DNA of 64,000 bases, taken from NCBI GenBank assembly GCA_963791995.1, contig CAWBUQ010000016.1, forward strand, positions 39,535 to 103,534, in the 5' to 3' direction. The notes under the pieces were generated by a model. It searched no databases. It saw only the letters and a list, made by a program, of their open reading frames with translations, and was not told the DNA's origin. Positions 8,872-26,326 of this stretch are shown piece after piece (positions within the stretch are counted from its first letter, which is position 1; each line of letters opens with the position of its first letter). The stretch comes from an uncultured Acidimicrobiaceae bacterium. Its GTDB lineage: Bacteria > Actinomycetota > Acidimicrobiia > Acidimicrobiales > RAAP-2. A program made the position numbers and the translations under genes.

Positions 8872-9784
8872 GTGAGCGCATCGGTCGCCGACCTGGGTCT
8901 CCCGGGCGGCGAGCCACGTCCGCGCCCACGGCCGGCCGGGCCGGCGGCGGGGGTGCGCCGTCCCCCCTCGGCGCGCCCCCCGCCCTGACGCGGCGGGCGC
9001 CGTCGCCACCGCGGCGGCCCGGCGCTGGCCGTCACCTACCTGTCGCTGCTCGTCCTCCTGCCGCTCGCCGCCCTCCTCACCAACGCCTTCAGCAGCGGCT
9101 GGAGCGCCTTCTGGACCGCGGTCACCCACCCGAGGCGGTGGCCGCCCTCGAACTGACGCTGGCCGTGTCGGCCATCGTGGCGGTCGTCAACTCCATTGCC
9201 GGCCTGGCCATCGCCTTCGTGCTCGTGCGCGACGACTTCCGGGGCAAGGCGCTGGTCGAGCGCCGTCATCGACCTGCCCTTCGCGCTGCCGACCATCGTG
9301 GCCGGCCTCACCCTGCTCGCGCTCTACGGCGTCGAACAGTCCGTTCCACGTCAACCTGGCCGGCACCCAGCTCGGCATCGGCGCCGCGTTGCTCTTCGTG
9401 ACCCTGCCCTTCTGCGTCCGCAGCGTCCAACCGGTGCTGGCCGAGCTCGACGCGGAGATCGAGGAGGCCGCCGCCTCCCTCGGCGCCAGCCCGCGCCAGG
9501 TGCTCTGCGCCGGGTCGTGCTGCCGAGCATCCTCCCCGCGGTCCTCGCCGGCGCCGGCCTGGCCTTCGCCCGTGCCGTGGGCGAGTTCGGCTCGGTCGTG
9601 CTGATCTCGGGCAACCTGCCCTTCAAGACCGAGGTCGCGTCCTCCTAGATCTACAGCCTCTTCCAGAGCGGCGACCTCCCGGCGGCGAGCGCCGTCTCCG
9701 TCGTGCTGGTCGCCATCTCGCTGCTCGTGCTCCTCGGCATCGGCTGGGCCCGCCGCCGCTTCGACATCTCCGGAGTCGGTGTGA
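8872..9784 (+). CDS. cysT: Sulfate ABC transporter permease CysT (several frameshifts and an in-frame TAG at 9646-9648). Both ends approximate.
   Basis: ..[19 protein letters not shown].., ..[21 protein letters not shown].., ..[13 protein letters not shown].., ..[32 protein letters not shown].. Confidence 0.65.
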
Positions 9785-10604
9785 AGCGCTCCCGCTGGCG
9801 CCTGCCGCTGCGCTACGCCGTGCTCGTCTACCTGGCCCTGCTGGTCGTCCTGCCCGTCGGGACGGTGTTCTACCGCGCCTTCCAGCACGGGCTCGGCACG
9901 GCGTGGGATGCGCTCACCGCGCCGGACGCCCTGCACGCGCTGTGGCTCACGCTGCTCGTCGCCGCTCATCGCCGTCCCGCTCAACACCGCCTTCGGCGTC
10001 GGGGTCTCGCTCATCCTGGCCCGCCACCGCTTCCCCGGCGCCTGGCTGCTCGACGCGCTCGTCGACATCCCCCTCGCCATCTCGCCCGTCGTCATCGGGC
10101 TCGGGTCTGATCCTCGTCTACGGCAAGACGGGCTGGTTCGGCAACTGGCTGGCCGCCCGGGGCATCACGGTCATCTTCTCGTTGCCCGGCATCATCATGG
10201 CCTCGGCCGCGGTGTCGCTCCCCTACGTGGTGCGCGAGGTGCTGCCGGTGCTCCAGGAGATCGGCACCGAGCAGGAGCAGGCGGCGCGCACGCTCGGCGC
10301 CCGGCCGCTGGCCGTGTTCTGCCGCATCACCCTCCCCAACATCCGCCGCGGCCTGGCCTACGGGATCACGCTGACCACCGCCCGGGTCCTCGGCGAGTTC
10401 GGCGCGGTGGCCATCGTCTCGGGCGACATCGCCGGCAAGACCCAGACGCTGACCCTGTTCATCTCCAACAGCATCGAGAACCTCGAGCCCGAGAGCGCCT
10501 ACGTCGGCGCGGTGGCCCTGTGCGTCGCCGCCCTCCTGGTGCTCACGATGCTGACCGTGACCGACCGCCGACGGGCCGACTGGCACACCAGGGCCACGCC
10601 GTGA
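9781..10604 (+). CDS. cysW: Sulfate ABC transporter permease CysW (2 frameshifts as assembled)
   Basis: GTG 9781. ..[14 protein letters not shown].., ..[50 protein letters not shown].. Stop 10602-10604 overlaps the cysA start (GTGA). Confidence 0.8.
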
Positions 10605-15631: not shown

Positions 15632-16197
15632 TCGGCCCTGGCCCAGGTCGGGCCGGTCGCCGGCGGCAACAGGGAATGCCCGCCGGTCGTCCGTCCCGCC
15701 TGCGACGACAACACAGACACAACCTGGTCCTGCACGCGCCCTCTCGGTCCGAAAACGACGGCGCGCCGCCACGCGCCGCAGGCCCATCGTGACCCGTTCT
15801 CCCAGCCCAGAGTGCATCTTTGGCGACTGTCTCGACCGTCTCCTGACCGTCCAGGGCAGACCCCTCACCGGGGCCGCCAGGGCGAGACATGCACTACACA
15901 CGCATGGGACAGGGAATCCCTAGCGTGTGCAGGCGATGAACCAGGCGGACCGCACTGTCGCGGGAACGACGAGGGCACTGCCCCGGCACGTCCCCACGGC
16001 GCGTCGCGCCTGCACCCTGGTCCCGCCCACCCCCTCCCTCGCCCCCCACCGGCGAGGCCGGCCGTGACCGACATCGCCTCCGACCCGGCCGCCGCCGCGG
16101 CAGCCGAGCTGCAGAACGCAGCAGCCTCGACGGCACCGACACCGCCCAGGGCGACACGTCCACGGCGGGCGCCGGCGGCGCGATCCAGAAGCGGGCG

Positions 16198-17591
16198 ATG
16201 CGCGGCGCCTCGTTCCTCTTCGGACGCGAGGCCATCGGATCGGTCGTGCGCCTCATCGGCGTGATCATCACCGTCCGCATGATCGGCCCGAGCAACTACG
16301 GCGTGTTCACCGCGGCGGCCGCCTACGTCGCGGTCATCGTGACCATCTGCCAGATGGGGTCAGAGGTCTTCCTCATCCGTGCCCACGAACAGCCCACCAA
16401 GCGGCTGAACAACGAGATCTTCACGTTGCTGCTGGTGACCTCGGTCGCATTGAGCGTCGTCGCGCTCGGCTTGACGTTCGTGCTGGCGCCTCTCATCAAG
16501 CCCGCGGGCACCCTCGTGCCGCTACGCGTGTTGCTCCTCTGCGTGCCGATCAACGCGCTGTGGGCACCAGCCCAGGCGCACATCGAGCGTGCCTTCGACT
16601 ACAAGAAGATGGGCATCCTCGAGCTCGGTGGCGACATCGTCCTCTACGCCGTCGCCGTGCCGTTGGCCCTCTTGCACTTCGGCGCCTGGTCGCTCGTCGC
16701 CGGCTATTTCGCCTGGCAGACCTTCCTGCTCGTCGGAAGCCTGCTCCTGTCGGGCCTGCGGCCGCGCCTGGCGTGGTCGACCAAGACGGCCAAGGACGTC
16801 ATCCGCCACGGCACCTCGTATTCGACCTCCATGCTGTTCGTCAACCTCGTCTTCGTGGTCCCCCCGATCGTCGTCGGGACGTTCGTCGGTGCGGCCGGCG
16901 TCGGCTACGTGTCGTTCGGGCGCAACCTCGTCAACACGGTCGGGTTCGCCAAGCGCGCCGCGTACCGCCTGGGCATCGTCACCATGGCCCAGATCAACCG
17001 CGACGACCCCAAGCTGTTCCGTCAGGGCCTCGAGCGCGGCGCCTTCTTGCTCACGCTGGCGCTGGGCGTGTCCCTTCGCCATCTTCGGACTGGGCGCGCA
17101 CTGGATCGTCCCCGCCCTCTTCGGACACGAATGGGCCGCCGCACTGCCGATCTTCTGCCTCCTCGCGCTGGGCTGGGTGCTCAACTCCATCGGGTCGGTC
17201 GAAGCCTCCCTCTTCTATGCGCTCGGGAAGAACACGGTGGTGGCGGTCGGACAGGGCCTCCAGGTGCTCTTCTTGTTCGTGCTCTCGATCCCGCTGGTCA
17301 AGTACTGGGGCGTCAACGGCTTCGGCGTCGCCTCGCTGCTCGCCATGGTTGCCTTCGTCTACCCGGATCGGACAGCTGCGCAAGCTCGCCACCTACTCCA
17401 TGGCCGCGACGATCGCGGTCTCGCTGATCCTCGCCCCCTCCATGTTCCTGCCGATCTTCCCGCCCTGGATCGGCCTGGTCCTCTTGCTGCCCTGGGTGCT
17501 GCTCTTCGTGGTCAAGTCGCTCCGGGAGCAGATCTTCGGGGTGCTCGACTCCCTCCGCTCGTCACTCCGGCGCAAGGTCGCAGTGGCATGA
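16198..17591 (+). CDS. Wzx/MOP-superfamily polysaccharide flippase (2 internal frameshifts as assembled)
   Basis: MRGASFLFGREAIGSVVRLIGVIITVRMIGPSNYGVF.. and about 12 predicted TM segments, pieced from ORFs 16198-, 16589- and 16560-17591. Possible upstream GTG at 16064. Confidence 0.75.
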
Positions 17592-18082
17592 CAGACGTCG
17601 TGACACCCCCTTCCTGCCGGGTCGGCGTGGACCTCGCCACCGTCGCCGACGTCGAGTCGGCCCTGGCTGCGCACGGGGAGCGCTACCTCCGGCGGGTCTT
17701 CACCCCCCATGAGCTGGACTGTTGTCGCAGGTCCGGCGGCTGGTCGGCCGAATCGCTCGCCGCCCGCTTCGCCGCCAAGGAGGCCACCATCAAGGTGCTC
17801 CAGCCCAGGGCCAACCAACCCGATTGGAACAGTATGGAAGTGCGGCGCCGCTCTGACGGCTCCTGCACCATGACCCTTTCGCGCACTGCGGCCGAGATGG
17901 CCGAGGCGGCCGGCATCACCGCGCTGTCGCTCAGCATGAGCCACGAGGGCGAGCAGGCCGCGGCGGTTGTGTTCGCCTTGTGCGGCCCGCCGCCCGGGAC
18001 CGCCCTCAGCCTCTCCGGCGGCGTCACGCCGGGACGAATCGAATTCGCAGCATGGAAAGAAAGGAAACCAGCAGATGCCTGA
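17588..18082 (+). CDS. 4'-phosphopantetheinyl transferase, AcpS type
   Basis: ATG overlaps the flippase stop (ATGA). VGVDLATVADVE..RVFTPHE..LAARFAAKEATIKVL..SLSMSHEGEQAAAVV is the holo-ACP synthase pattern. Confidence 0.8.
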   Translation: MTDVVTPPSCRVGVDLATVADVESALAAHGERYLRRVFTPHELDCCRRSGGWSAESLAARFAAKEATIKVLQPRANQPDWNSMEVRRRSDGSCTMTLSRTAAEMAEAAGITALSLSMSHEGEQAAAVVFALCGPPPGTALSLSGGVTPGRIEFAAWKERKPADA

Positions 18083-18347
18083 GCCCGCGCACCCCAACGA
18101 GGCGCGAGTCCGTTCCACGTTGGTCGAGCACGCCCGCCTGCCCGTGGACGTCGAGACGCTCCAGGTCTATGACGACTTGTTTCAAGCCGGGATGACCTCG
18201 CACGCCAGCGTCAACGTGATGCTTGCCCTCGAAGAGGAGTTCGACATCGAATTCCCCGAGGAGATGCTCCAGAAGTCGACCTTCGAGTCGATCGAAGCGA
18301 TCTGCTCGTCGATCGCCAGCCTCAGCACGATTGGAGACCCAGTATGA
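18075..18347 (+). CDS. Small carrier protein (ACP/PCP-like, 90 aa)
   Basis: ATG 18075 overlaps the PPTase end by 8 nt. DDLFQAGMTSHASVNVMLALEEEFDIEFPEE has a carrier-protein helix II with candidate Ppant Ser42 (18198-18200). Confidence 0.75.
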   Translation: MPEPAHPNEARVRSTLVEHARLPVDVETLQVYDDLFQAGMTSHASVNVMLALEEEFDIEFPEEMLQKSTFESIEAICSSIASLSTIGDPV

Positions 18348-19506
18348 GCTCGACAAAACTGCACGGCCACGAGGCCGCGGCGCGAGCGGCGACGATCGCC
18401 GCCGAGGTGACGGCGCCAGCGGCCGACGACGTCGACACCCGCTCTCGATTCCCCTTCGAGACCTTCGAGGCGCTCCAGGCCGACGGCCTCCTGGCCACGC
18501 TGGTCCCGATCGAGTTCGGGGGCATCGGCGCCACGCTGTCCGAGGCGGGTGACACCGTGACCGAGCTCGCCAAGGCCTGCTCCTCGAGCGGGATGATCCT
18601 GGCCATGCACCACCTCCAGGTGGCCTGCGTGGTCCGCCACGGGCAGAACGAAGCACTCCGGCAATTCCTGGCTGAGATCGCCAACGAGCAGTTGCTGCTG
18701 GCCTCGGCCACCACCGAGGTGGGCGTAGGCGGCAACACGCGCGAGAGCATCTGCGCCATTCAGCCGCACGAGCAGGGTTTCGAGCTGCAAAAGGCGGCGG
18801 GCGTCATCTCCTACGGCTCCTACGCCGACGCGGTGCTGGCGACAGCTCGGCGCAACGAGGACGCGCCGGCCAGCGACCAGGTGCTGGTCGTGTGTCGCGC
18901 CCCCGGCCTCAGCCTCGAGCAGACGGGCCAGTGGAACACGCTCGGCATGCGCGGCACCTGCAGCCCCGGCTTCGCACTGCGGGCCACGGGGTCCATGGAC
19001 ATGATCCTGCCGGTCGGCTTCGGCGAGGTCTCCGAGCGGACCATGCTCCCGGTGTCGCACATCCTGTGGGCCTGTGTCTGGCAGCGGCATCGCGTCGGCG
19101 GCCGTCGAGCGCGCCCGATCCATGGTCCGGGCCGAAGCCCGCAAGAACGTCGACGTGCTGCCCAAGGGCGCCCCGGCGCTGGCCGAGCTCCTGCTCCAGC
19201 AGCGCCAGCTCGAGGCCTTGGTCCAGGACGCCCTCGACGAATTCGACCGGCTCGATGCCTCGCCGCGTGCCGGCGTGCCCATGTCGTTCACCATCGCCAT
19301 GAACACGCTGAAGGTCGCGGCATCGCGCCTCGTCGTCGAGATCGTCTCGGGCGCTCTCATGCTCTGCGGAATGGCCGGCTACTCCCACGGCACGCCGTAC
19401 AGCCTGGGACGCCAGCTCCGCGACTCCTACAGCGCCGACGGTGATGATCAACAACACGCGGATCCTCGCCGACAACGCCCACATGCTCACGATCTCAAAG
19501 GGGTAG
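18344..19506 (+). CDS. Acyl-CoA dehydrogenase-family flavoprotein (2 frameshifts as assembled)
   Basis: ATGA overlap with the carrier gene. ..FPFETFEALQADGLL..ELAKACSSSGMILAMHH..ATTEVGVGGN..NTLGMRGTCSPGF..GYSHGTPYSLGRQLRDSYSA.. Confidence 0.8.
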
Positions 19507-19509
19507 ACG

Positions 19510-20412
19510 ATGACTGACACCACTGCTTTCGGCTCGGCTCTCGTCGAAAAGGGCCTGCTGTTCCCGACCGGGATCCTCGGCGTGCTGGGCCGCTCCCAGC
19601 AGTACGCGGACATCGCGGCCGGGCTCAACTCGATCGTCGACGCCTGGGGCGTCGAGCTTGGCGCGACGGGCATCCAGTTCCCGCCCATCGTGAACAAGGC
19701 GACGTTCGAGGAGACCAACTACGTCCAGTCCTTCCCCGACCTCATGGGGGCGATCCACGTCTTCACCGGCGGCAACAAGGAGCACGCGGAGCTCCTGCGG
19801 CGTTCGGAGTCGGGCAAGGACTGGTCGGACATGCTCGAGATGGCCGACGTGTTCCTGGCCTCTGCGGCCTGCCACCCGGTGTACCCGATGTGCACGGGCA
19901 CGCTGCCTGAGTCCGGGCGCTACTTCAACGTGTCGAGCTACTGCTTCCGTCACGAGCCGAGCGAGGACCCGGCGCGCATGCAGTCGTTCCAGATGCACGA
20001 GATCGTCTTCGTCGGCGACCCCGATGCGGCGCAGCAGCACCGCGACGCCGGGCTCGAGGTCGGCATCGACATCCTGCGCCGGCTCGGGCTCGAGATGGAC
20101 GTGATCGAAGCCAACGATCCCTTCTTCGGCCGCCTGGGCACCGCCATGGCCAAGGGCCAGAAGGAAGAGATCCTGAAACTCGAGGGCACGACGCCCATCG
20201 GGAGCCCCGACCACCCCGTGGCCATCATTTCGGGCAACTGCCACCGCGACCACTTCGGCACCCCGTTCTCGATCGAGACGGGGGATGGTGCGGTGGCCCA
20301 CAGCGCCTGTGTCGCCTTCGGCGTCGACCGGATCACGCTCGCCCTCTTGTACCATCACGGGCTCGACGTGAGCAGCTGGCCGGCCGAGGTCAAGGAGGCA
20401 TTGCGCTTGTGA
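19510..20412 (+). CDS. Truncated class-II aaRS homologue: amino acid:[carrier-protein] ligase type (SerRS-like catalytic core only)
   Basis: 300 aa with no tRNA-binding domain. Motif 2 YCFRHEPS (19945-19956), motif 3 ACVAFGVDRITLAL. Candidate Zn ligands C121 / E164 / C267, as in methanogen-type SerRS. Confidence 0.75.
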   Translation: MTDTTAFGSALVEKGLLFPTGILGVLGRSQQYADIAAGLNSIVDAWGVELGATGIQFPPIVNKATFEETNYVQSFPDLMGAIHVFTGGNKEHAELLRRSESGKDWSDMLEMADVFLASAACHPVYPMCTGTLPESGRYFNVSSYCFRHEPSEDPARMQSFQMHEIVFVGDPDAAQQHRDAGLEVGIDILRRLGLEMDVIEANDPFFGRLGTAMAKGQKEEILKLEGTTPIGSPDHPVAIISGNCHRDHFGTPFSIETGDGAVAHSACVAFGVDRITLALLYHHGLDVSSWPAEVKEALRL

Positions 20413-21407
20413 GGGTCCAGGTGCTCAATCTGGATCCGAGCACGTACGTCTCCCATCTCGTCCACGGCGACGAGCGGATGTGGCTCGAGTCGAACTGCGC
20501 GGCCGACCTCTGGATCGAGGTCCTGCACGGCGTCGGCCTCGAACCGCTCGCTGCCATGGGGTTCTTGCTCAGCGCCGGGTTCGACGGCGAGCAGTGGCGC
20601 ATGTTCAAGTTCTCCATGGAGGACGTGTGGCGGCTCTACGGGATCGACTGCTACGAGGTGAACCTCTGGCGCACCCTCCCGAACCACCTCGAGGACCACA
20701 TCGCCCTCGGCCGGATGATCACCATCGACGTCGACGCCTGGTGGCTACCCGACACCGAGGGGCTCACCTACAAGACCGCCCACCAGAAGACGACGGTGGC
20801 GGTCCAGATGATCGACGTGGAGGCCGGCCGCATCGGCTACTTCCACAACGGCGGCTACTACGAGCTCGGCGGCGAGGAGTACGAGCGGCTGATCGCTGAC
20901 GAGGCCGTGGCGGTCATCCCGCCCTACGCCGAGGCGATCGACCTCGAGCACCTCCGACGCGACGAGGACCTGCGGCCGCTGGCCCTCGAGCTCGCCCGTG
21001 AGCATTTCGCCCGCCGGCCCACGGCCAACCCGGTCAGCGAGATGCGCAAGCGTCTGGAGGGCGACCTCCCCTGGCTCGTCAGGGACGGGATCGACACATT
21101 CCACCGCTACGCCTTCGGGTCGATCCGCCAGTGCGGATCCAACGCGGAGCTGGCCGTGGACTACGTGCGCTGGCTGGCCGCCGGCCCGGGCGCTCCCGAG
21201 ACGAGCACCGCGTCCGAGCAGAGCTCCAGGAACGGCGACGCCGCCGCCGAGGCCTTTCTCACCGTCTCCAAGAAGGCGAAGGCGCTGGAGTTCCAACTCG
21301 CCCGCGTGCTGCGGGGCAAGCAGATCGCACTGGCGGAGGTGATGTCGGAGATGGAGTCCGCCTGGGAGGATGCCATCGAGGCCACAGCCGCCTTGCTCTA
21401 TGGCTGA
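20409..21407 (+). CDS. Conserved protein of unknown function (resembles DUF1839; family name from memory only)
   Basis: Intact 332-aa ORF. GTGA overlap with the ligase stop and an 8-nt overlap with the next gene. N-terminal ..WLESNCAADLWIEVLHG.. has a Cys/His pair. Confidence 0.6.
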   Translation: MRVQVLNLDPSTYVSHLVHGDERMWLESNCAADLWIEVLHGVGLEPLAAMGFLLSAGFDGEQWRMFKFSMEDVWRLYGIDCYEVNLWRTLPNHLEDHIALGRMITIDVDAWWLPDTEGLTYKTAHQKTTVAVQMIDVEAGRIGYFHNGGYYELGGEEYERLIADEAVAVIPPYAEAIDLEHLRRDEDLRPLALELAREHFARRPTANPVSEMRKRLEGDLPWLVRDGIDTFHRYAFGSIRQCGSNAELAVDYVRWLAAGPGAPETSTASEQSSRNGDAAAEAFLTVSKKAKALEFQLARVLRGKQIALAEVMSEMESAWEDAIEATAALLYG

Positions 21408-23892
21408 CCTGCTCGAGCACGCGGCCTGGTCGTGTGCTCGCACATCGCCGGGCCTCCTCGACGGGGCGGACCCTTCTGCGCTCGACGCGCTCGACTGGAT
21501 GCCCGCGTCCGTCCCGGGCACTGCGGCCGAGGCCCTCGCCGCCGTCGGCGCCCCCGACGTGGCGGACCATGACTACGACGCGGAGGACTGGTGGTTCCGC
21601 TGCCGCTTCCCCGGTGGGCCCGGGACCTGGCAGCTGCAGCTGCACGGCATCGCCACCCTGGCCGACGTCTGGGTCAACGGGTCCCAGGTGGCCCGGACCG
21701 AGAACATGTTCGTGCGCACCTCGGTCACGCTCGAGGGGCTGGGGGACGACAACGAGCTCGTCATCCGCTGCGAAGCGCTGTCCCCCGCCCTGGCGGTCAA
21801 ACGGCCCCGGCCGCGTTGGCGGACCACCCAGGTCGAGAACCAGGCGCTGCGCTGGTTCCGCACCACCCTCTTGGGCCGGATCCCCGGCTGGGCGCACACC
21901 CCCCGCACCGTCGGGCCGTGGCGGCCCGTTGCCGTCACCCAGGACAACGGCCCGCTGAACGGTGCCCTCGACACCTTCGTCCATGCGTCGTGCGATGGCG
22001 AGAGCGGCCGCGTCGACGTCGCCCTGCGCTTCGCGGGCGTGCCCGGCTGGGCCGAGGAGTCCGGCGACGGGGCGCCCGTGCTGGTCTGCCTGGGCCGCGA
22101 GGCCACCTTCGAGGTGGAGCACGAGGGCTCCGATGTGACGCTGCGCGCGTCGCTGCCCGTCACCGGGTTCGAACGGTGGTGGCCCCATACCCACGGCTCC
22201 CAGCCGCTCTACGAAGTCGGGCTGCGATTGGGCGGCGTGGTCCATCCCCTCGGGCGCGTCGGGTTCCGCACGGTGGAGGTCGACCGCTCCGACGGCGGCT
22301 TCACCTTCGTCGTCAACGGCGTCCCGATCTTCGTCAGAGGCGCGAATTGGTTCCCGCCCGATCCCGTCAGCCGGCACGCCGGCGACGACGAGGTGCGGCG
22401 GCGCCTGGGGCTCGCCCGCGAGGCCAACCTCAACATGGTGCGCATCCCGGGCACCACGGCCTACGCCGACCGATCGGTCCTCGACGCCTGCGACGAGCTC
22501 GGCCTGTTGCTCTGGCACGACTGCATGTTCGCCTTCATGGACTACCCCGACGACGAGGGGTTCGTCGCCGGCGTCCGCCAGGAGTTGCGCCAGGCCTTCG
22601 CCGACCTGTCCGGGCATCCGGCGCTGGCCATCGTGTGCGGGAACCAAGAAGTCGCCGAGATCGCCGCCATGAACGGTGGCGGCCAGACCGGCTTCGAGTC
22701 CGAGCTCTTCGACACCGTCATCCCCGCGCTGACCGCCGCGTTGCTGCCCGGCGTCGAGTTCGTGGCGTCGAACCCGGGGGGCGGCGACCCCGTCTACCGG
22801 CCCGACACCGGCGTGAGCCAGTACTTCGGTCTCGGGGGCTACCTGCGCCCGCTCAACGCGCTGCGCCGTGACGACGTGCGCTTCGCGGCGGAGTGCCTCT
22901 GTTACGCCACACCACCCGAACCAGAGGCCGTCACCCGGCTGGGCGGCGCCAACATCGCCGTGCACGACCCCACGTGGAAGGTGGGCATCCACCACGACCC
23001 GGGCCGGTCCTGGGACATGGACGACGTCCGCGCCTTCTACATGCGGGAGGTCTTCGGGGTCGACCCGCTGTGGGAGCGCTACTCCGATGCCGAGCGCGCG
23101 CTCGATCTGGGCCGGGCCACCAACGCCTTCTTGATGCAGTACGTCTTCACCGAGTGGCGCTGCAACGAGCGGGCCGGTGGCGGCCTGGTGCTCGGCCTCC
23201 ACGACCTGGCGCCGGGGGCGGGCTGGGGCCTATTGGACGTGACGGGCCAACCCAAGGCACCGTGGTACGCCATGCGACGAGTCTCGGAGCCGATCTGCGT
23301 CCTCCTCGTCGACGAAGGCCTGAACGGGCTGTGCGCCCACGTGTGCAACGACTCGGCAGAGGCCTTCAGCGGTGAGCTCGCCGTCGATCTCTACACCAAC
23401 GGCGAGACCCTGAGCACGCAGGCCGTCCGCCCGGTGAGCGTCAAGGCCCGGGGCGCCGAGATCGTCAATCTTTACAACCTCTTCGACGAATTCACCGACC
23501 TCAACTACGCCTACCGCTTCGGGCCGCCCACATATGACGTCATCGCGGTGACCCTCAAGGACACCGCGGCTTCGGTGGTCTCCGACTCCGTCCTGCTGCC
23601 TCTCGGCCAGGCCCGTCCACTCGAGGCCGACATCGGCCTGCGTGCCGTCGTGCACTCGGACGACTCGACCGGGGGTCCGCCCCAGGTGCACGTCACGACC
23701 CGTCGCTTCGCCCAGTGGGTCTCGGTGAACGCGCCGGGCTTCCGACCGTCGGACTCCTGGTTCCATCTGCCGCCCGGGTCCGAGCGCGTCGTCACGCTGC
23801 ACGACTGCGAACCGTCGCGCCCCGCGCGGGGCCGGGTGCGGGCGCTCAACTCCACGGTGGCGGCGGTGATACGACCCGAGGAGGACTCGTGA
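21400..23892 (+). CDS. GH2-family beta-mannosidase-like protein, no signal peptide
   Basis: Intact 830 aa. ..GIATLADVWVNG..VRGANWFP.., LLLWHDCMFAFMDYP, ALAIVCGNQEVAE (acid/base region) are GH2 beta-mannosidase/exo-glucosaminidase-like patterns. Confidence 0.8.
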   Translation: MADLLEHAAWSCARTSPGLLDGADPSALDALDWMPASVPGTAAEALAAVGAPDVADHDYDAEDWWFRCRFPGGPGTWQLQLHGIATLADVWVNGSQVARTENMFVRTSVTLEGLGDDNELVIRCEALSPALAVKRPRPRWRTTQVENQALRWFRTTLLGRIPGWAHTPRTVGPWRPVAVTQDNGPLNGALDTFVHASCDGESGRVDVALRFAGVPGWAEESGDGAPVLVCLGREATFEVEHEGSDVTLRASLPVTGFERWWPHTHGSQPLYEVGLRLGGVVHPLGRVGFRTVEVDRSDGGFTFVVNGVPIFVRGANWFPPDPVSRHAGDDEVRRRLGLAREANLNMVRIPGTTAYADRSVLDACDELGLLLWHDCMFAFMDYPDDEGFVAGVRQELRQAFADLSGHPALAIVCGNQEVAEIAAMNGGGQTGFESELFDTVIPALTAALLPGVEFVASNPGGGDPVYRPDTGVSQYFGLGGYLRPLNALRRDDVRFAAECLCYATPPEPEAVTRLGGANIAVHDPTWKVGIHHDPGRSWDMDDVRAFYMREVFGVDPLWERYSDAERALDLGRATNAFLMQYVFTEWRCNERAGGGLVLGLHDLAPGAGWGLLDVTGQPKAPWYAMRRVSEPICVLLVDEGLNGLCAHVCNDSAEAFSGELAVDLYTNGETLSTQAVRPVSVKARGAEIVNLYNLFDEFTDLNYAYRFGPPTYDVIAVTLKDTAASVVSDSVLLPLGQARPLEADIGLRAVVHSDDSTGGPPQVHVTTRRFAQWVSVNAPGFRPSDSWFHLPPGSERVVTLHDCEPSRPARGRVRALNSTVAAVIRPEEDS

Positions 23893-25707
23893 TGACCGGT
23901 GCGCCCGTCCCGACGGACCCCGCCACTGCGGCTGCTCCTGCCACCCCGACCACCCCGGCCAGCGTGCGGGCGACGCCGGTCTACTTCGGTCCACAGGAAA
24001 GGCCGCTCTTCGGCTGGGTCCACCAACCGGCCGACGGGCTCTCCCGCGGCACGGTCATCATGTGCGAGCCCCTGCTGCGCGAGTACATCAGTGCGCACTA
24101 CACCTTTCGTGTCCTGGCCGAGGCCCTGGCCGCTCGAGGCATCACGGCCATCCGCTTCGACTACGACGGCACCGGCGACTCGGCGGGCGACGACTCCGAT
24201 CCGGGTCGGATCGACGCCGCGGTGGCCTCCATCGGGCACGCCGTCGATCTGGCGCGGAGCCTGGGCCCGACTCGGCTCGCCCTCATCGGCATGCGCCTCG
24301 GCGCGTTGCTGGCGTCCAAGGCCGTCGAACACGACACGTCGATCTCCGAGCTCGTGCTCTGGGATCCCTGCGGCTCGGGACGCGACTTCCTGCGGGCGCA
24401 GTCAGCCCTCTTCCGGATGCGCTACGGGAAGGCAAAACGAGAAGACGGCAGCACGGAAGTTCCCGGTTTCGTGCTCTCGACCCAGACCGTCGAAGAACTG
24501 TCGGCGCTGGCGGCACCCACCTCGCTCCCTTCGATCGAGCACGCGCTGATCCTCGATCGCTCCGACCGCCCCGCGTCAGGGACCTTCGGCGTCGACGAGA
24601 GCCGGATCGAACGCCTCGAGGCGACCGGTCAAGCCGGGCTCATGGACATCGAGCCTTTCTTCAACACAGTGCCGTCCACGGCGATCGAGAGCATCGCCGA
24701 CTGGTTCGACGGGGTCTTTCCGACCGAGCGTGCCGCGCGAGTCGCAACCGGCAACCGACGCCATTACGGTGCGAGCCAAAGACGGATCCCGGGTCAGCGA
24801 GCGCGTCGTCACGCTCGGGCCGCACGACTTGTTCGGGATCCTGGCGACCGGCGATGCCGAGCCGACCGGCCCACCGGTTCTGTTCCTCAACAGCGGGAGG
24901 GATCCCCACACGGGCCCCAACCGGATGTGGGTCGACCTCAGCCGGGAATGGGCCGCGTTGGGCTTCCCCTGTTACCGCTTCGACCTCAGTGGCCTCGGGG
25001 ACAGTCCGGTCCGCCCCGGGCAGGTACCCAACCGCGTCCGGGTGGCCGAGGCGTTCGACGACGTGGTCGATGCCGTGGCCGACGTGGTGGGTGGCCCGTC
25101 GAACGGCCGGCCCGACGGCGCGTCGGACGGCGCGTCGGACGGCGAGGTCGCACCCGTCGTGCTGGCCGGGCTGTGCGCCGGTGCCTACCAGGTGCTCGAG
25201 AGTGCGATCGATCTGCGCCCGCGGTCGGTCCTCTCGGTCAACCCGATCCTGCGGTTCCAGCCGTGGGAGGTCGATCTGGGCGGGCCGATGGACCCGCGAC
25301 GACGGTTCTGCAAGCCCGCCGGCAGCCTGCGCCAGACCTACCGGGCGCTGCCGTCGTGGAAGATCCTGCGACTGGCCCGCGCTCGCTACCTCACCTTCGC
25401 CGGCAGGCTCTCACGTCAGCGCACATCGATCGACTGGCTCGAGGAGGCAGCCGCGCAGGGGACTGACATTCTGTGCATCTGTGGAGAAGAAGAGGCGGTG
25501 CCCTTCTTCGAAGGCGTGTCGGCCGATCGCACGACGGTGGAAGACGAGCGCTGCCGGCTCCAGGTGATCCCTGGTCTCGACCATGGGCTCATGATGGCCG
25601 GGGACCGCGTGCAGGTCGCCTCCCTCCTCACCGCGCACATCTCATCGCTGTTCCCTCACGGCGCGACAACGGCTCGGACCGACACGTCGCAGCCGTCGAA
25701 CTCGTAG
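23889..25707 (+). CDS. Tandem (two-domain) alpha/beta-hydrolase-fold protein, 1 frameshift near 24760
   Basis: GTGA overlap with the GH2 stop. Domain 1: RFDYDGTGDSAGD.. with box G-M-R-L-G (24288-24302, no nucleophile). Domain 2: RFDLSGLGDSP.. with box G-L-C-A-G (25168-25182). Confidence 0.7.
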
Positions 25708-25756: not shown

Positions 25757-26326
25757 GTGGACTACCGGCTCCTCCTGATTTCGGGCAGCCTGCGTGAAGG
25801 CTCGACCAATACGGCCGCGCTGCGATCGATCCAAGCGGCGCCGCCGCGTGGCGTGCACGCCTCCTTCTACGACGAGCTGGCCGGCCTGCCCGCCTTCAAC
25901 CCCGATCTCGACACCGGCGCACCGCCACCCGAGGTCGACCGCCTGCGAACCCGCATCCATCGTTCGGACGCGCTCGTGTTCTCGACACCAGAATACGCAG
26001 GAGCCCTCCCGGGGTCGTTGAAGAACCTGCTCGATTGGACCATCGGCGATGAAGACGCCGACTCCGTCTACGAGAAACCAGTTGCATGGCTGAACGCCTC
26101 GCCACGAGGTGCCGCGGGCGCGCACGCGGAGCTGCGAACCGTCCTCGGGTACGCGGACGCCACCATCGTCGAAGCGGCGTGCATGACAGTGCCGGTGACG
26201 CAGGCCATGCTGGGCACCGACGGCCTGGTGAAGGATCCCGCCGCCCTCGACCAGATGCACACGATGCTGCAGCGCCTGACGGCGCGACTGGCATCAGTCT
26301 CGGGCTCGGGGTCGCCTCGGCCCTAA
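25757..26326 (+). CDS. NAD(P)H-dependent FMN reductase family protein
   Basis: LLLISGSLREGSTNTA..ALVFSTPEYAGALPGSLKNLLDW is the FMN_red pattern. It starts 49 nt after the hydrolase gene on the same strand. Confidence 0.8.
   Translation: MDYRLLLISGSLREGSTNTAALRSIQAAPPRGVHASFYDELAGLPAFNPDLDTGAPPPEVDRLRTRIHRSDALVFSTPEYAGALPGSLKNLLDWTIGDEDADSVYEKPVAWLNASPRGAAGAHAELRTVLGYADATIVEAACMTVPVTQAMLGTDGLVKDPAALDQMHTMLQRLTARLASVSGSGSPRP

Follow-up and report, generated by a model that had tools for sequence, protein, structure and literature searches.

Here we describe a gene for a tandem α/β-hydrolase from an uncultured Acidimicrobiaceae bacterium, the polysaccharide operon that surrounds it, and the function that can be read from both. 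The analyzed stretch, referred to as the window, comprises 64,000 nucleotides (69% G+C) of contig C16 (CAWBUQ010000016.1) in a metagenome-assembled genome (MAG; G000) that is 81% complete and divided over 23 contigs. The hydrolase gene runs from 23889 to 25707 on the plus strand, like the other genes of the operon, and encodes 605 amino acids (aa) when one extra base at 24739 is skipped, as the reading-frame plot and fused orthologues indicate. Its GTG start at 23889 overlaps the stop codon of the GH2-like gene upstream. The predicted product resembles a fusion of two hydrolases that accompany exosortase-A, and it probably unloads the amino-acid-carrying carrier protein encoded in the same operon.

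The two hydrolase halves

The first-pass annotation of this DNA had recognized two α/β-hydrolase halves with different nucleophile elbows, one bearing Arg and one bearing Cys, and both motifs can be read directly at the positions it gave, in two different frames. In the first half, the elbow G134-M135-R136-L137-G138 (24288–24302, frame 0) holds Arg136 (codon 24294–24296) in place of the catalytic Ser, and in the second half, the elbow G427-L428-C429-A430-G431 (25168–25182, frame 1) holds Cys429 (codon 25174–25176). The pattern RFD(Y/L)(D/S)G(T/L)GDS, said to be shared by both halves, is likewise there. It reads RFDYDGTGDS at 24153–24182, as part of the N-domain box RFDYDGTGDSAG (24153–24188) that continues with A-G, and RFDLSGLGDS at 24976–25005. 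Residues R89, F90, G94, D97, and G100 of the N-domain box are invariant (alignment A1), as are R, D, G, G, D, and S of the C-domain box (alignment A3).

The N domain (residues 1–283; 23889–24737) is nucleophile-less and similar to hydr2_PEP, as judged from its match to TIGR03101, a profile alignment to PDB structures, and the secondary structure of the model described below. The C domain (residues 285–605; 24742–25704) is similar to hydr1_PEP and carries the Cys nucleophile; it was delimited by its match to TIGR03100, a match to Abhydrolase_6 (E = 1.4e-10), and alignment A3. Few charged residues are invariant in the hydr2-like family, namely Glu65 after strand 3 (24081–24083; invariant column in alignment A4) and Arg136, plus Asp91 and Asp97 of the RFDxxGxGDS box. 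In the C domain, conservation and alignment single out Glu535 (25492–25494), in a G-E-E-E sequence after strand 526–531, as the candidate triad acid and His565 (25582–25584), in L-D-H, as the candidate catalytic His. Inspection of the translation revealed no hydrophobic signal sequence at the N terminus, and the best reading of the product is a single cytoplasmic 605-aa protein of two α/β-hydrolase domains.

The halves are only distantly alike, with a BLASTP match of E = 0.005 across 23 residues around the RFDxxGxGDS box. Given this weak match and their assignment to different families, a recent tandem duplication of one hydrolase was rejected. A small repeat was seen within the C domain at 25115–25147, where a tandem 12-nucleotide (nt) unit, GACGGCGCGTCG, encodes DGAS-DGAS-DGE in a low-confidence surface loop (residues ~403–420); this loop exceeds that of the orthologues by 8–17 residues.

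One gene across a frameshift

The two elbows lie in different frames, and the question arises whether they belong to one gene. The G+C content at third codon positions (GC3) is 0.8–0.9 in frame 0 from 23889 to approximately 24720–24740, after which frame 1 is coding up to 25707. From about 24740 onward, frame 1 gives a sensible protein that ends with the stop codon at 25705–25707, and frame 0 beyond residue ~283 gives nonsense rich in Arg and Pro, as far as the stop at 25466. A frameshift had been suspected near 24760; the GC3 pattern agrees that the assembly carries a +1 shift, and alignment to contig L016 from a close relative (95% identical) places it some 20 nt away. L016 is without one G of the CGCGCG at 24734–24739, leaving a single-base gap at 24739 within the interdomain linker of ~14 residues. 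Once this extra G is removed, the window reads ...TERAAQSQPATD..., and the Gln so obtained agrees with the SAQ of the orthologues.

Among the 40 relatives searched, orthologues in one unbroken frame occur in G008 (66% identity over residues 18–592), G001, G017, G007, G002, and G036. The intact fused orthologues in relatives measure 580–600 aa, and in a large protein database the fused homologues number at least 725 (~560–620 aa), mostly from Acidimicrobiales MAGs and under generic names such as alpha/beta fold hydrolase. Because of the GC3 pattern and these intact orthologues, the halves are read as one gene and not two. The first-pass annotation had foreseen that they might turn out to be separate genes after resolution of the frameshift; both the orthologues and the comparison to L016 speak for a single gene instead.

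It could be argued that the frameshift is genuine and has left this organism with a pseudogene or with a pair that was split secondarily. After all, the assembly as read carries the extra G, unfused pairs work elsewhere, and a GTG at 24730 could start a separate C half, for which gene callers give a 325-aa protein (P0240). However, the N half would then continue through ~240 nonsense codons to 25466, GC3 is high in both halves, and the closest relative is without the extra G. Moreover, neighboring conserved genes are full of frameshifts: measured against the intact genes of G008, the window contains at least seven other frame changes, in a cysA-like gene, a flippase gene, and a gene of the acyl-CoA dehydrogenase (ACAD) fold. 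A comparison of the window with L016 across 13.5 kb, most of it coding, gives 204 indels, 191 (94%) of which are 1–2 nt long. Such short indels, together with scattered frameshifts, are the signature of long-read assembly error and not of gene decay. A genuine frameshift thus appears improbable to us, and we hold it very likely that the shift at 24739 is an assembly artifact, so the organism probably makes the intact fusion. In practical terms, the gene is best annotated as one protein, and as the assembly is rich in single-base indels, any "pseudogene" in the window needs to be checked against relatives. The other frame changes (one or more per gene) were located at 9784–10595 (cysA-like ATPase), 15749–17570 (Wzx flippase), and 18158–19503 (ACAD-fold gene).

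Active-site residues and fold

Conservation was counted over 115 fused homologues, and it is far above chance for the motifs of both halves. Arg136 and Gln248 are each kept in 114 of these sequences, Cys429 in 113 (the other two have Ser), His565 in 108, and Glu535 in 107. An AlphaFold model built on 113 homologues (mean predicted local distance difference test score, pLDDT, 90.9; predicted template-modeling score, pTM, 0.90) consists of two α/β-hydrolase domains connected by the ~14-residue linker. In this model, Arg136 and Cys429 each sit between a strand and a helix, which is the position of the nucleophile elbow; for Cys429 these are strand 421–428 and helix 430–442. Glu535 follows three residues past the Gly that ends strand 526–531, and His565 comes after strand 555–559, so that the C domain matches the canonical order of a nucleophile after strand 5, an acid after strand 7, and a His after strand 8. 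Profile alignment to solved hydrolases agrees, as it aligns Glu535 with the Asp of GSADE, and His565 with the catalytic His. In the same manner, Arg136 falls on the Ser of GFSLG (9pic_A) or GLSMG in solved Ser hydrolases.

The N domain departs from the fold's catalytic design in other places as well. It has C-E-P where solved hydrolases have C-H-G, and Gln248 takes the position of the His according to the family alignment and the strand order of the model (the profile alignment stops short of this point). Hence, judged from alignments and model, the N domain appears to be devoid of a nucleophile, the catalytic His, and the HG oxyanion motif, i.e., every catalytic element of the fold, in line with the earlier description of the first half as a nucleophile-less pseudo-enzyme. 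Its conservation nonetheless marks Arg136 as an invariant, selected residue and not as a product of decay. An alternative active site in the N domain, formed by Cys59 and His70, was considered and rejected: the same C...AH(R) occurs in ordinary Hydrolase_4-type Ser hydrolases (9pic_A), and Cys59 is not conserved in bona fide hydr2_PEP proteins.

For the C domain, the question had been raised whether His and Asp form a triad with the Cys. A conserved His does occupy the triad position, whereas the acid in this clade is Glu instead of Asp. Cys429, His565, and Glu535 accordingly form a candidate triad by topological position in the model. Since the acid residue varies between clades, the conserved core of the domain is a Cys-His dyad.

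Kinship with the exosortase-A hydrolases

A comparison with the hidden Markov models of the exosortase-associated hydrolases had been suggested, and its outcome is twofold. The N half is nearest to hydr2_PEP (TIGR03101; E = 2e-18) and the C half to hydr1_PEP (TIGR03100; E = 7e-9), as anticipated. Their scores, on the other hand, are far below the equivalog cut-offs (66.9 vs 202.75 bits and 35.4 vs 168.45 bits, respectively), and neither half is a member. In the genome itself no exosortase exceeds the cut-off, the best match to PF09721 scoring 17.8 bits against 25.7, although at 81% completeness this does not prove absence.

The hallmark residues nevertheless extend across the whole group. All single-domain relatives of the N half have G-[LM]-R-x-G, and all those of the C half have both G-L-C-x-G and D-H. 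We further collected eight bona fide exosortase-A hydrolase 2 genes (232–280 bits) from the class to which a Rhodocyclales locus belongs. A motif search on the tblastn matches found G-L-R-x-G as the elbow in seven of them, and alignment gave A-L-R-T-G for the eighth. Next to each lies a hydr1-like gene that reads G-L-C-D-[AG]. Five of these hydrolase 1 neighbors were scored and all are bona fide (340–360 bits), with W-G-L-C-D-A-A-S or L-G-L-C-D-G-A-S at the elbow and (D/N)-H-T-F-S at the His. A joint alignment of hydr2-like sequences shows Arg136 and Glu65 in all 20, the eight bona fide ones included (A4), and one of hydr1-like sequences shows Gly-Leu-Cys429 and His565 in all 24, whether fused, unfused, or bona fide (A3; columns G143, L144, C145, and H281). 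Because of this invariance, the Arg and Cys elbows are to be regarded as family hallmarks instead of local oddities. From sequence, the window protein thus qualifies as a same-order fusion of a hydrolase 2/hydrolase 1-like pair that stands outside those equivalogs, and its best reading is that it works like, and shares ancestry with, the exosortase-A pair.

The operon in the window and in relatives

The hydrolase gene is the last in a series of plus-strand genes. The series opens with a Wzx-type (MOP) flippase (15749–17570; Polysacc_synt_3), which is read in three frames by tblastn against its intact orthologue in G008. Next are an AcpS-type phosphopantetheinyl transferase (PPTase; 17621–18082; PF01648, TIGR00556) and a 90-aa carrier protein (18075–18347) whose PP-binding domain (18138–18296) matches PF00550 over the cut-off with 30.3 bits. 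They are followed by an ACAD-fold flavoprotein (18344–19506; Acyl-CoA_dh_N), which contains two frameshifts and passes through frames 2, 3, and 1 when compared with G008, and by an amino acid--[acyl-carrier-protein] (aa:CP) ligase (19510–20412; NF005479, 377.5 bits over a cut-off of 357). A papain-like DUF1839 gene (20409–21407) and the GH2-like gene (21370–23892), both assigned by Pfam, complete the series up to the hydrolase. The ligase scores over its cut-off and shares the operon with a carrier protein, which identifies an aa:CP ligase operon. The acyl carrier protein (ACP) and ligase that the first-pass annotation associated with such hydrolases are therefore both found here, together with the PPTase. 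A sugar-uptake operon with an esterase, as the GH2-like neighbor might suggest, was rejected because the upstream genes encode the flippase, PPTase, ACP, ACAD-fold protein, and ligase, not an ABC transporter.

G008 and G002 have the operon in the same gene order. In G001 and G017, the gene right after the ligase is the tandem hydrolase, and these loci also hold WecG-type and initiating sugar transferases, Wzz, Wzy, and Wzx. A tblastn search of these two loci found neither DUF1839 nor GH2 in the operons, making both genes accessory and leaving the tandem hydrolase as the only candidate off-loader there. None of the 10 genomes with the ligase lacks the tandem hydrolase. In this genome and in eight of the nine relatives concerned, the two genes are at most 8 kb apart on one contig; the exception is G036, a fragmented assembly in which they fall on different contigs. 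The tandem hydrolase is situated ~6 kb upstream of the ligase, not downstream, in G010, G011, G013, and G023, and several genomes have a second copy elsewhere.

The papain-like DUF1839 protein is a competitor for the off-loading step. In this scenario, DUF1839 would transfer the group from carrier to glycan, and the tandem hydrolase would be, for example, a CmaE-like carrier-to-carrier shuttle or an esterase that deacylates the polymer. DUF1839 is a Cys/His protein related in kind to BtrH-type carrier transferases, its gene sits between those for the ligase and the hydrolase in the window, and a survey links it, from context, to glycan processing in an acyl-CoA-dependent manner (PMC10318531). 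It was not found by tblastn, however, in the operons of G001 and G017, where ACP, ligase, and tandem hydrolase persist, and a tblastn screen of 80 nonribosomal peptide synthetase/polyketide synthase (NRPS/PKS)-type loci, chosen as described below, detected it in one only. A shuttle fits poorly with an operon that has a single carrier protein, and a periplasmic esterase is unlikely because the hydrolase has no signal peptide. We therefore give this division of labor little credence and continue to favor the tandem hydrolase as the off-loader.

As for the ACAD-fold protein, weak matches to the two-component flavin monooxygenases SfnB, DszC, and HsaA, and a neighboring gene for an NADPH-dependent flavin mononucleotide (FMN) reductase (25757–26326, downstream of the hydrolase), raise the idea that it might be an oxygenase dependent on reduced FMN (FMNH2) and acting on the loaded carrier. 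The reductase was rejected as a conserved partner, as it is common to the near relative L016 only and not to G008, G001, G017, and G002.

Unfused pairs behind other carriers

Species-representative genomes were scanned with a profile of the unfused hydr2-like protein, which yielded at least 580 loci in Gammaproteobacteria, Betaproteobacteria, Alphaproteobacteria, Myxococcota, Gemmatimonadota, Chloroflexota, Nitrospinota, and others. The counts that follow refer to the best 80 of these loci, i.e., those nearest to one Marinobacter-type query. In 77 of the 80, a hydr1-like (Cys) gene lies just downstream of the Arg gene, the same arrangement as in bona fide exosortase-A loci, and 57 pairs are preceded by an open frame of at least 1,000 codons that ends at the start of the pair. 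When 13 of these upstream proteins were scanned, 12 proved to be NRPS/PKS whose last domain is PP-binding (thiolation [T] domain or ACP) and which are without a thioesterase (TE) domain. The pair follows a carrier protein in every setting seen, with one of the 13 loci so sampled as the exception. Across three loading systems (acyl-CoA-ligase-type, NRPS/PKS, and aaRS-like ligase, aaRS being aminoacyl-tRNA synthetase), the two genes keep each other and a phosphopantetheinyl carrier as neighbors throughout. A partial protein of 340 aa (P0178), encoded on a 2.2-kb metagenome contig, goes one step further: in it an NRPS thiolation domain, represented by its C-terminal end (FFELGGHS), runs directly into a hydr2-like domain with G-V-R-L-G, physically linking the Arg domain to a carrier.

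A Gemmatimonadales MAG (L087:1765–11606) holds the complete PPTase-ACP-ACAD-ligase-DUF1839-GH2 operon, followed by two unfused hydr2-like/hydr1-like pairs. Since this operon carries unfused pairs, it suggests that the operon as a whole was transferred between phyla and that the fusion came later in Acidimicrobiales. The surroundings of the unfused pairs vary. The Marinobacter locus also has Acyl_transf_3, DegT, and GT2 genes, the Gemmatimonas locus has an asparagine-synthase-type amidotransferase, and the Corallococcus NRPS cluster with its hydr2/hydr1 genes has a FeeM-like N-acyl amino acid synthase beside it (GNAT; L085:12959–13750, minus strand). A link between FeeM-like synthases and PEP-CTERM/exosortase loci has reportedly been published.

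The position of the pair after terminal T domains is that of a TE domain, and it could be taken to mean that the Cys domain is a hydrolytic thioesterase that cleaves the (amino)acyl-S-carrier for release or proofreading, so that a soluble product is freed or a misloaded carrier cleared and no glycan receives the group. The structural neighbors include thiohydrolases and the DcsB thioesterase, and the sequence is without any sign of a sugar-binding site. Yet dedicated thioesterases are almost always Ser enzymes, and the module sits in Wzx/Wzy polysaccharide loci. Where an enzyme keeps a thioester intermediate for later transfer, as do polyhydroxyalkanoate (PHA) synthase and the CmaE/SyrC-type shuttles, an invariant Cys is typical, which makes hydrolysis the less favored outcome. 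All in all, we consider a purely hydrolytic role unlikely and prefer a transferase.

A proposed route for off-loading the carrier

The following route would reconcile these observations. The aa:CP ligase would load an aminoacyl or acyl group onto the 90-aa carrier protein, where the ACAD-fold flavoprotein may first modify it. His565 (in this clade together with Glu535) would then activate Cys429 for attack on the carrier thioester, giving a putative S-acyl-enzyme intermediate on Cys429. From there, the group would be passed to an acceptor. The lipid-linked sugar unit exported by the adjacent Wzx is the most likely one, through a hydroxyl or an amine, and water is the alternative. The N domain, itself non-nucleophilic, would be an indispensable partner, either binding the carrier or its phosphopantetheine or contributing to a composite pocket. 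The closest reviewed matches in structure are PKS thiohydrolases and polyketide transferases for the C domain, and for the N domain they include LuxD acyl-ACP transferases.

The first-pass annotation had already proposed that the protein off-loads the carrier onto the glycan, with the pseudo-enzyme half as a docking domain. This interpretation is supported in part, by the hydrolase kinds, the Cys-His(-Glu) conservation, the ACP/ligase operon, and the single gene. A docking role for the Arg half is plausible, with P0178 as an example of a carrier domain joined to a hydr2-like one, and the protein does not belong to the exosortase-A equivalogs. Off-loading as such is probable, and transfer onto the glycan is more conjectural; hydrolytic release is equally compatible with the sequence.

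Several points weigh against this picture. Five soil-metagenome runs hold the stretch in parts, and their contigs leave 24676–25095 uncovered, neither confirming nor refuting the extra G. G003, G007, and G009 have the tandem hydrolase without the ligase, and with DUF1839 the window itself contains a competing off-loader. The acid of the candidate triad changes from Asp in the exosortase set to Glu in the fused clade and is not fixed in the unfused relatives. The structural matches to carrier-dependent hydrolases reach a template-modeling (TM) score of only ~0.5. The 80 loci that underlie the carrier linkage are a biased and not a random sample. Finally, a literature search for TIGR03100 and TIGR03101 returned annotation-level mention only and no biochemical datum for either family. 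Taking both sides together, we lean somewhat toward the complete reading, i.e., a Cys-dependent carrier off-loading enzyme with an Arg partner domain, most likely a glycan acceptor, and an intact fusion.

A broader proposition is more tentative, and we consider it less likely than not: the hydr2(Arg)/hydr1(Cys) pair may be a widespread and so far unrecognized two-component machine for off-loading carrier thioesters, which replaces the TE domain after terminal NRPS/PKS carriers and, in polysaccharide loci, attaches aminoacyl or acyl groups to sugars, with the invariant Arg-Glu pair as the site that binds the carrier or its phosphopantetheine. If true, it would provide the first downstream step for the aa:CP ligase family. 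The aaRS-like amino acid:[carrier protein] ligases were reportedly described in 2010, and we know of no function for them, for the exosortase-A hydrolase 1/2 pair, or for the hydrolase pairs after TE-less NRPS/PKS lines. The locus ties these three groups of genes together, as the three settings have the same Arg/Cys module behind a loaded carrier, here in fused form. It also offers a candidate enzyme for the amino-acid decoration of Wzx/Wzy-type polysaccharides in uncultured soil Acidimicrobiales, and the carrier linkage across phyla makes the function directly testable.

Comparison with known systems

CmaE and SyrC reportedly have an α/β-hydrolase fold with an active-site Cys. One report describes both, along with CouN7, as stand-alone transferases that move an (amino)acyl group off a carrier thioester (PMC8748450). 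Like the proposed activity of the window protein, they take the group from a carrier thioester and pass it on; they differ in being single-domain proteins with no Arg-bearing partner, and the likeness considered here is that of fold and described activity. GrgF, DcsB, and other fungal PKS-releasing thiohydrolases or polyketide transferases, as well as LuxD, are also trans-acting α/β-hydrolases that cleave acyl-S-ACP, but these are single-domain Ser enzymes with a TM score of ~0.5 and a sequence identity of 14–19% to the window domains.

At the level of the pathway, the proposed logic has precedents in carrier-protein-dependent aminoacylation, with DltABCD (D-Ala on teichoic acids) and AlmEFG (Gly on Vibrio cholerae lipid A) as examples (works cited in PMC11631085). 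Both systems have a carrier protein of their own, which a ligase charges with a small amino acid and which then donates it to an envelope glycolipid or polymer. The enzymes themselves are different: DltA and AlmE are adenylate-forming whereas the window ligase is aaRS-like, and the transferases are a membrane-bound O-acyltransferase (MBOAT; DltB) and an LpxL-like protein (AlmG) compared with a tandem α/β-hydrolase in the window.

The unfused NRPS/PKS-linked pairs of Marinobacter, Corallococcus, Gemmatimonas, Hyphomonas, and others have the same hallmark residues and order as the window protein and directly follow a carrier domain. They are encoded by two genes, however, their carrier is the last domain of a megasynthase, and their identity to the window halves is 25–35%. 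The exosortase-A pair (TIGR03101/TIGR03100, hypothetical equivalogs in NCBIfam) shows the same two hydrolase kinds in the same order, with an Arg elbow (GLRxG), a Cys elbow (GLCDA), and a (D/N)H at the His, all of which have corresponding residues in the window protein. According to the family descriptions, this pair occurs in polysaccharide loci alongside a carrier protein and an adenylating enzyme, as does the window protein. The two are set apart by the fusion into one chain instead of two genes, by the loader (an aaRS-like aa:CP ligase vs an acyl-CoA-ligase-type enzyme), and by the acid (Glu in G-E-E-E vs Asp in G-x-D-L-T). The uncharacterized hydrolase 2/1 pair was thus already known as a kind, and what the window adds to it is the fused variant.

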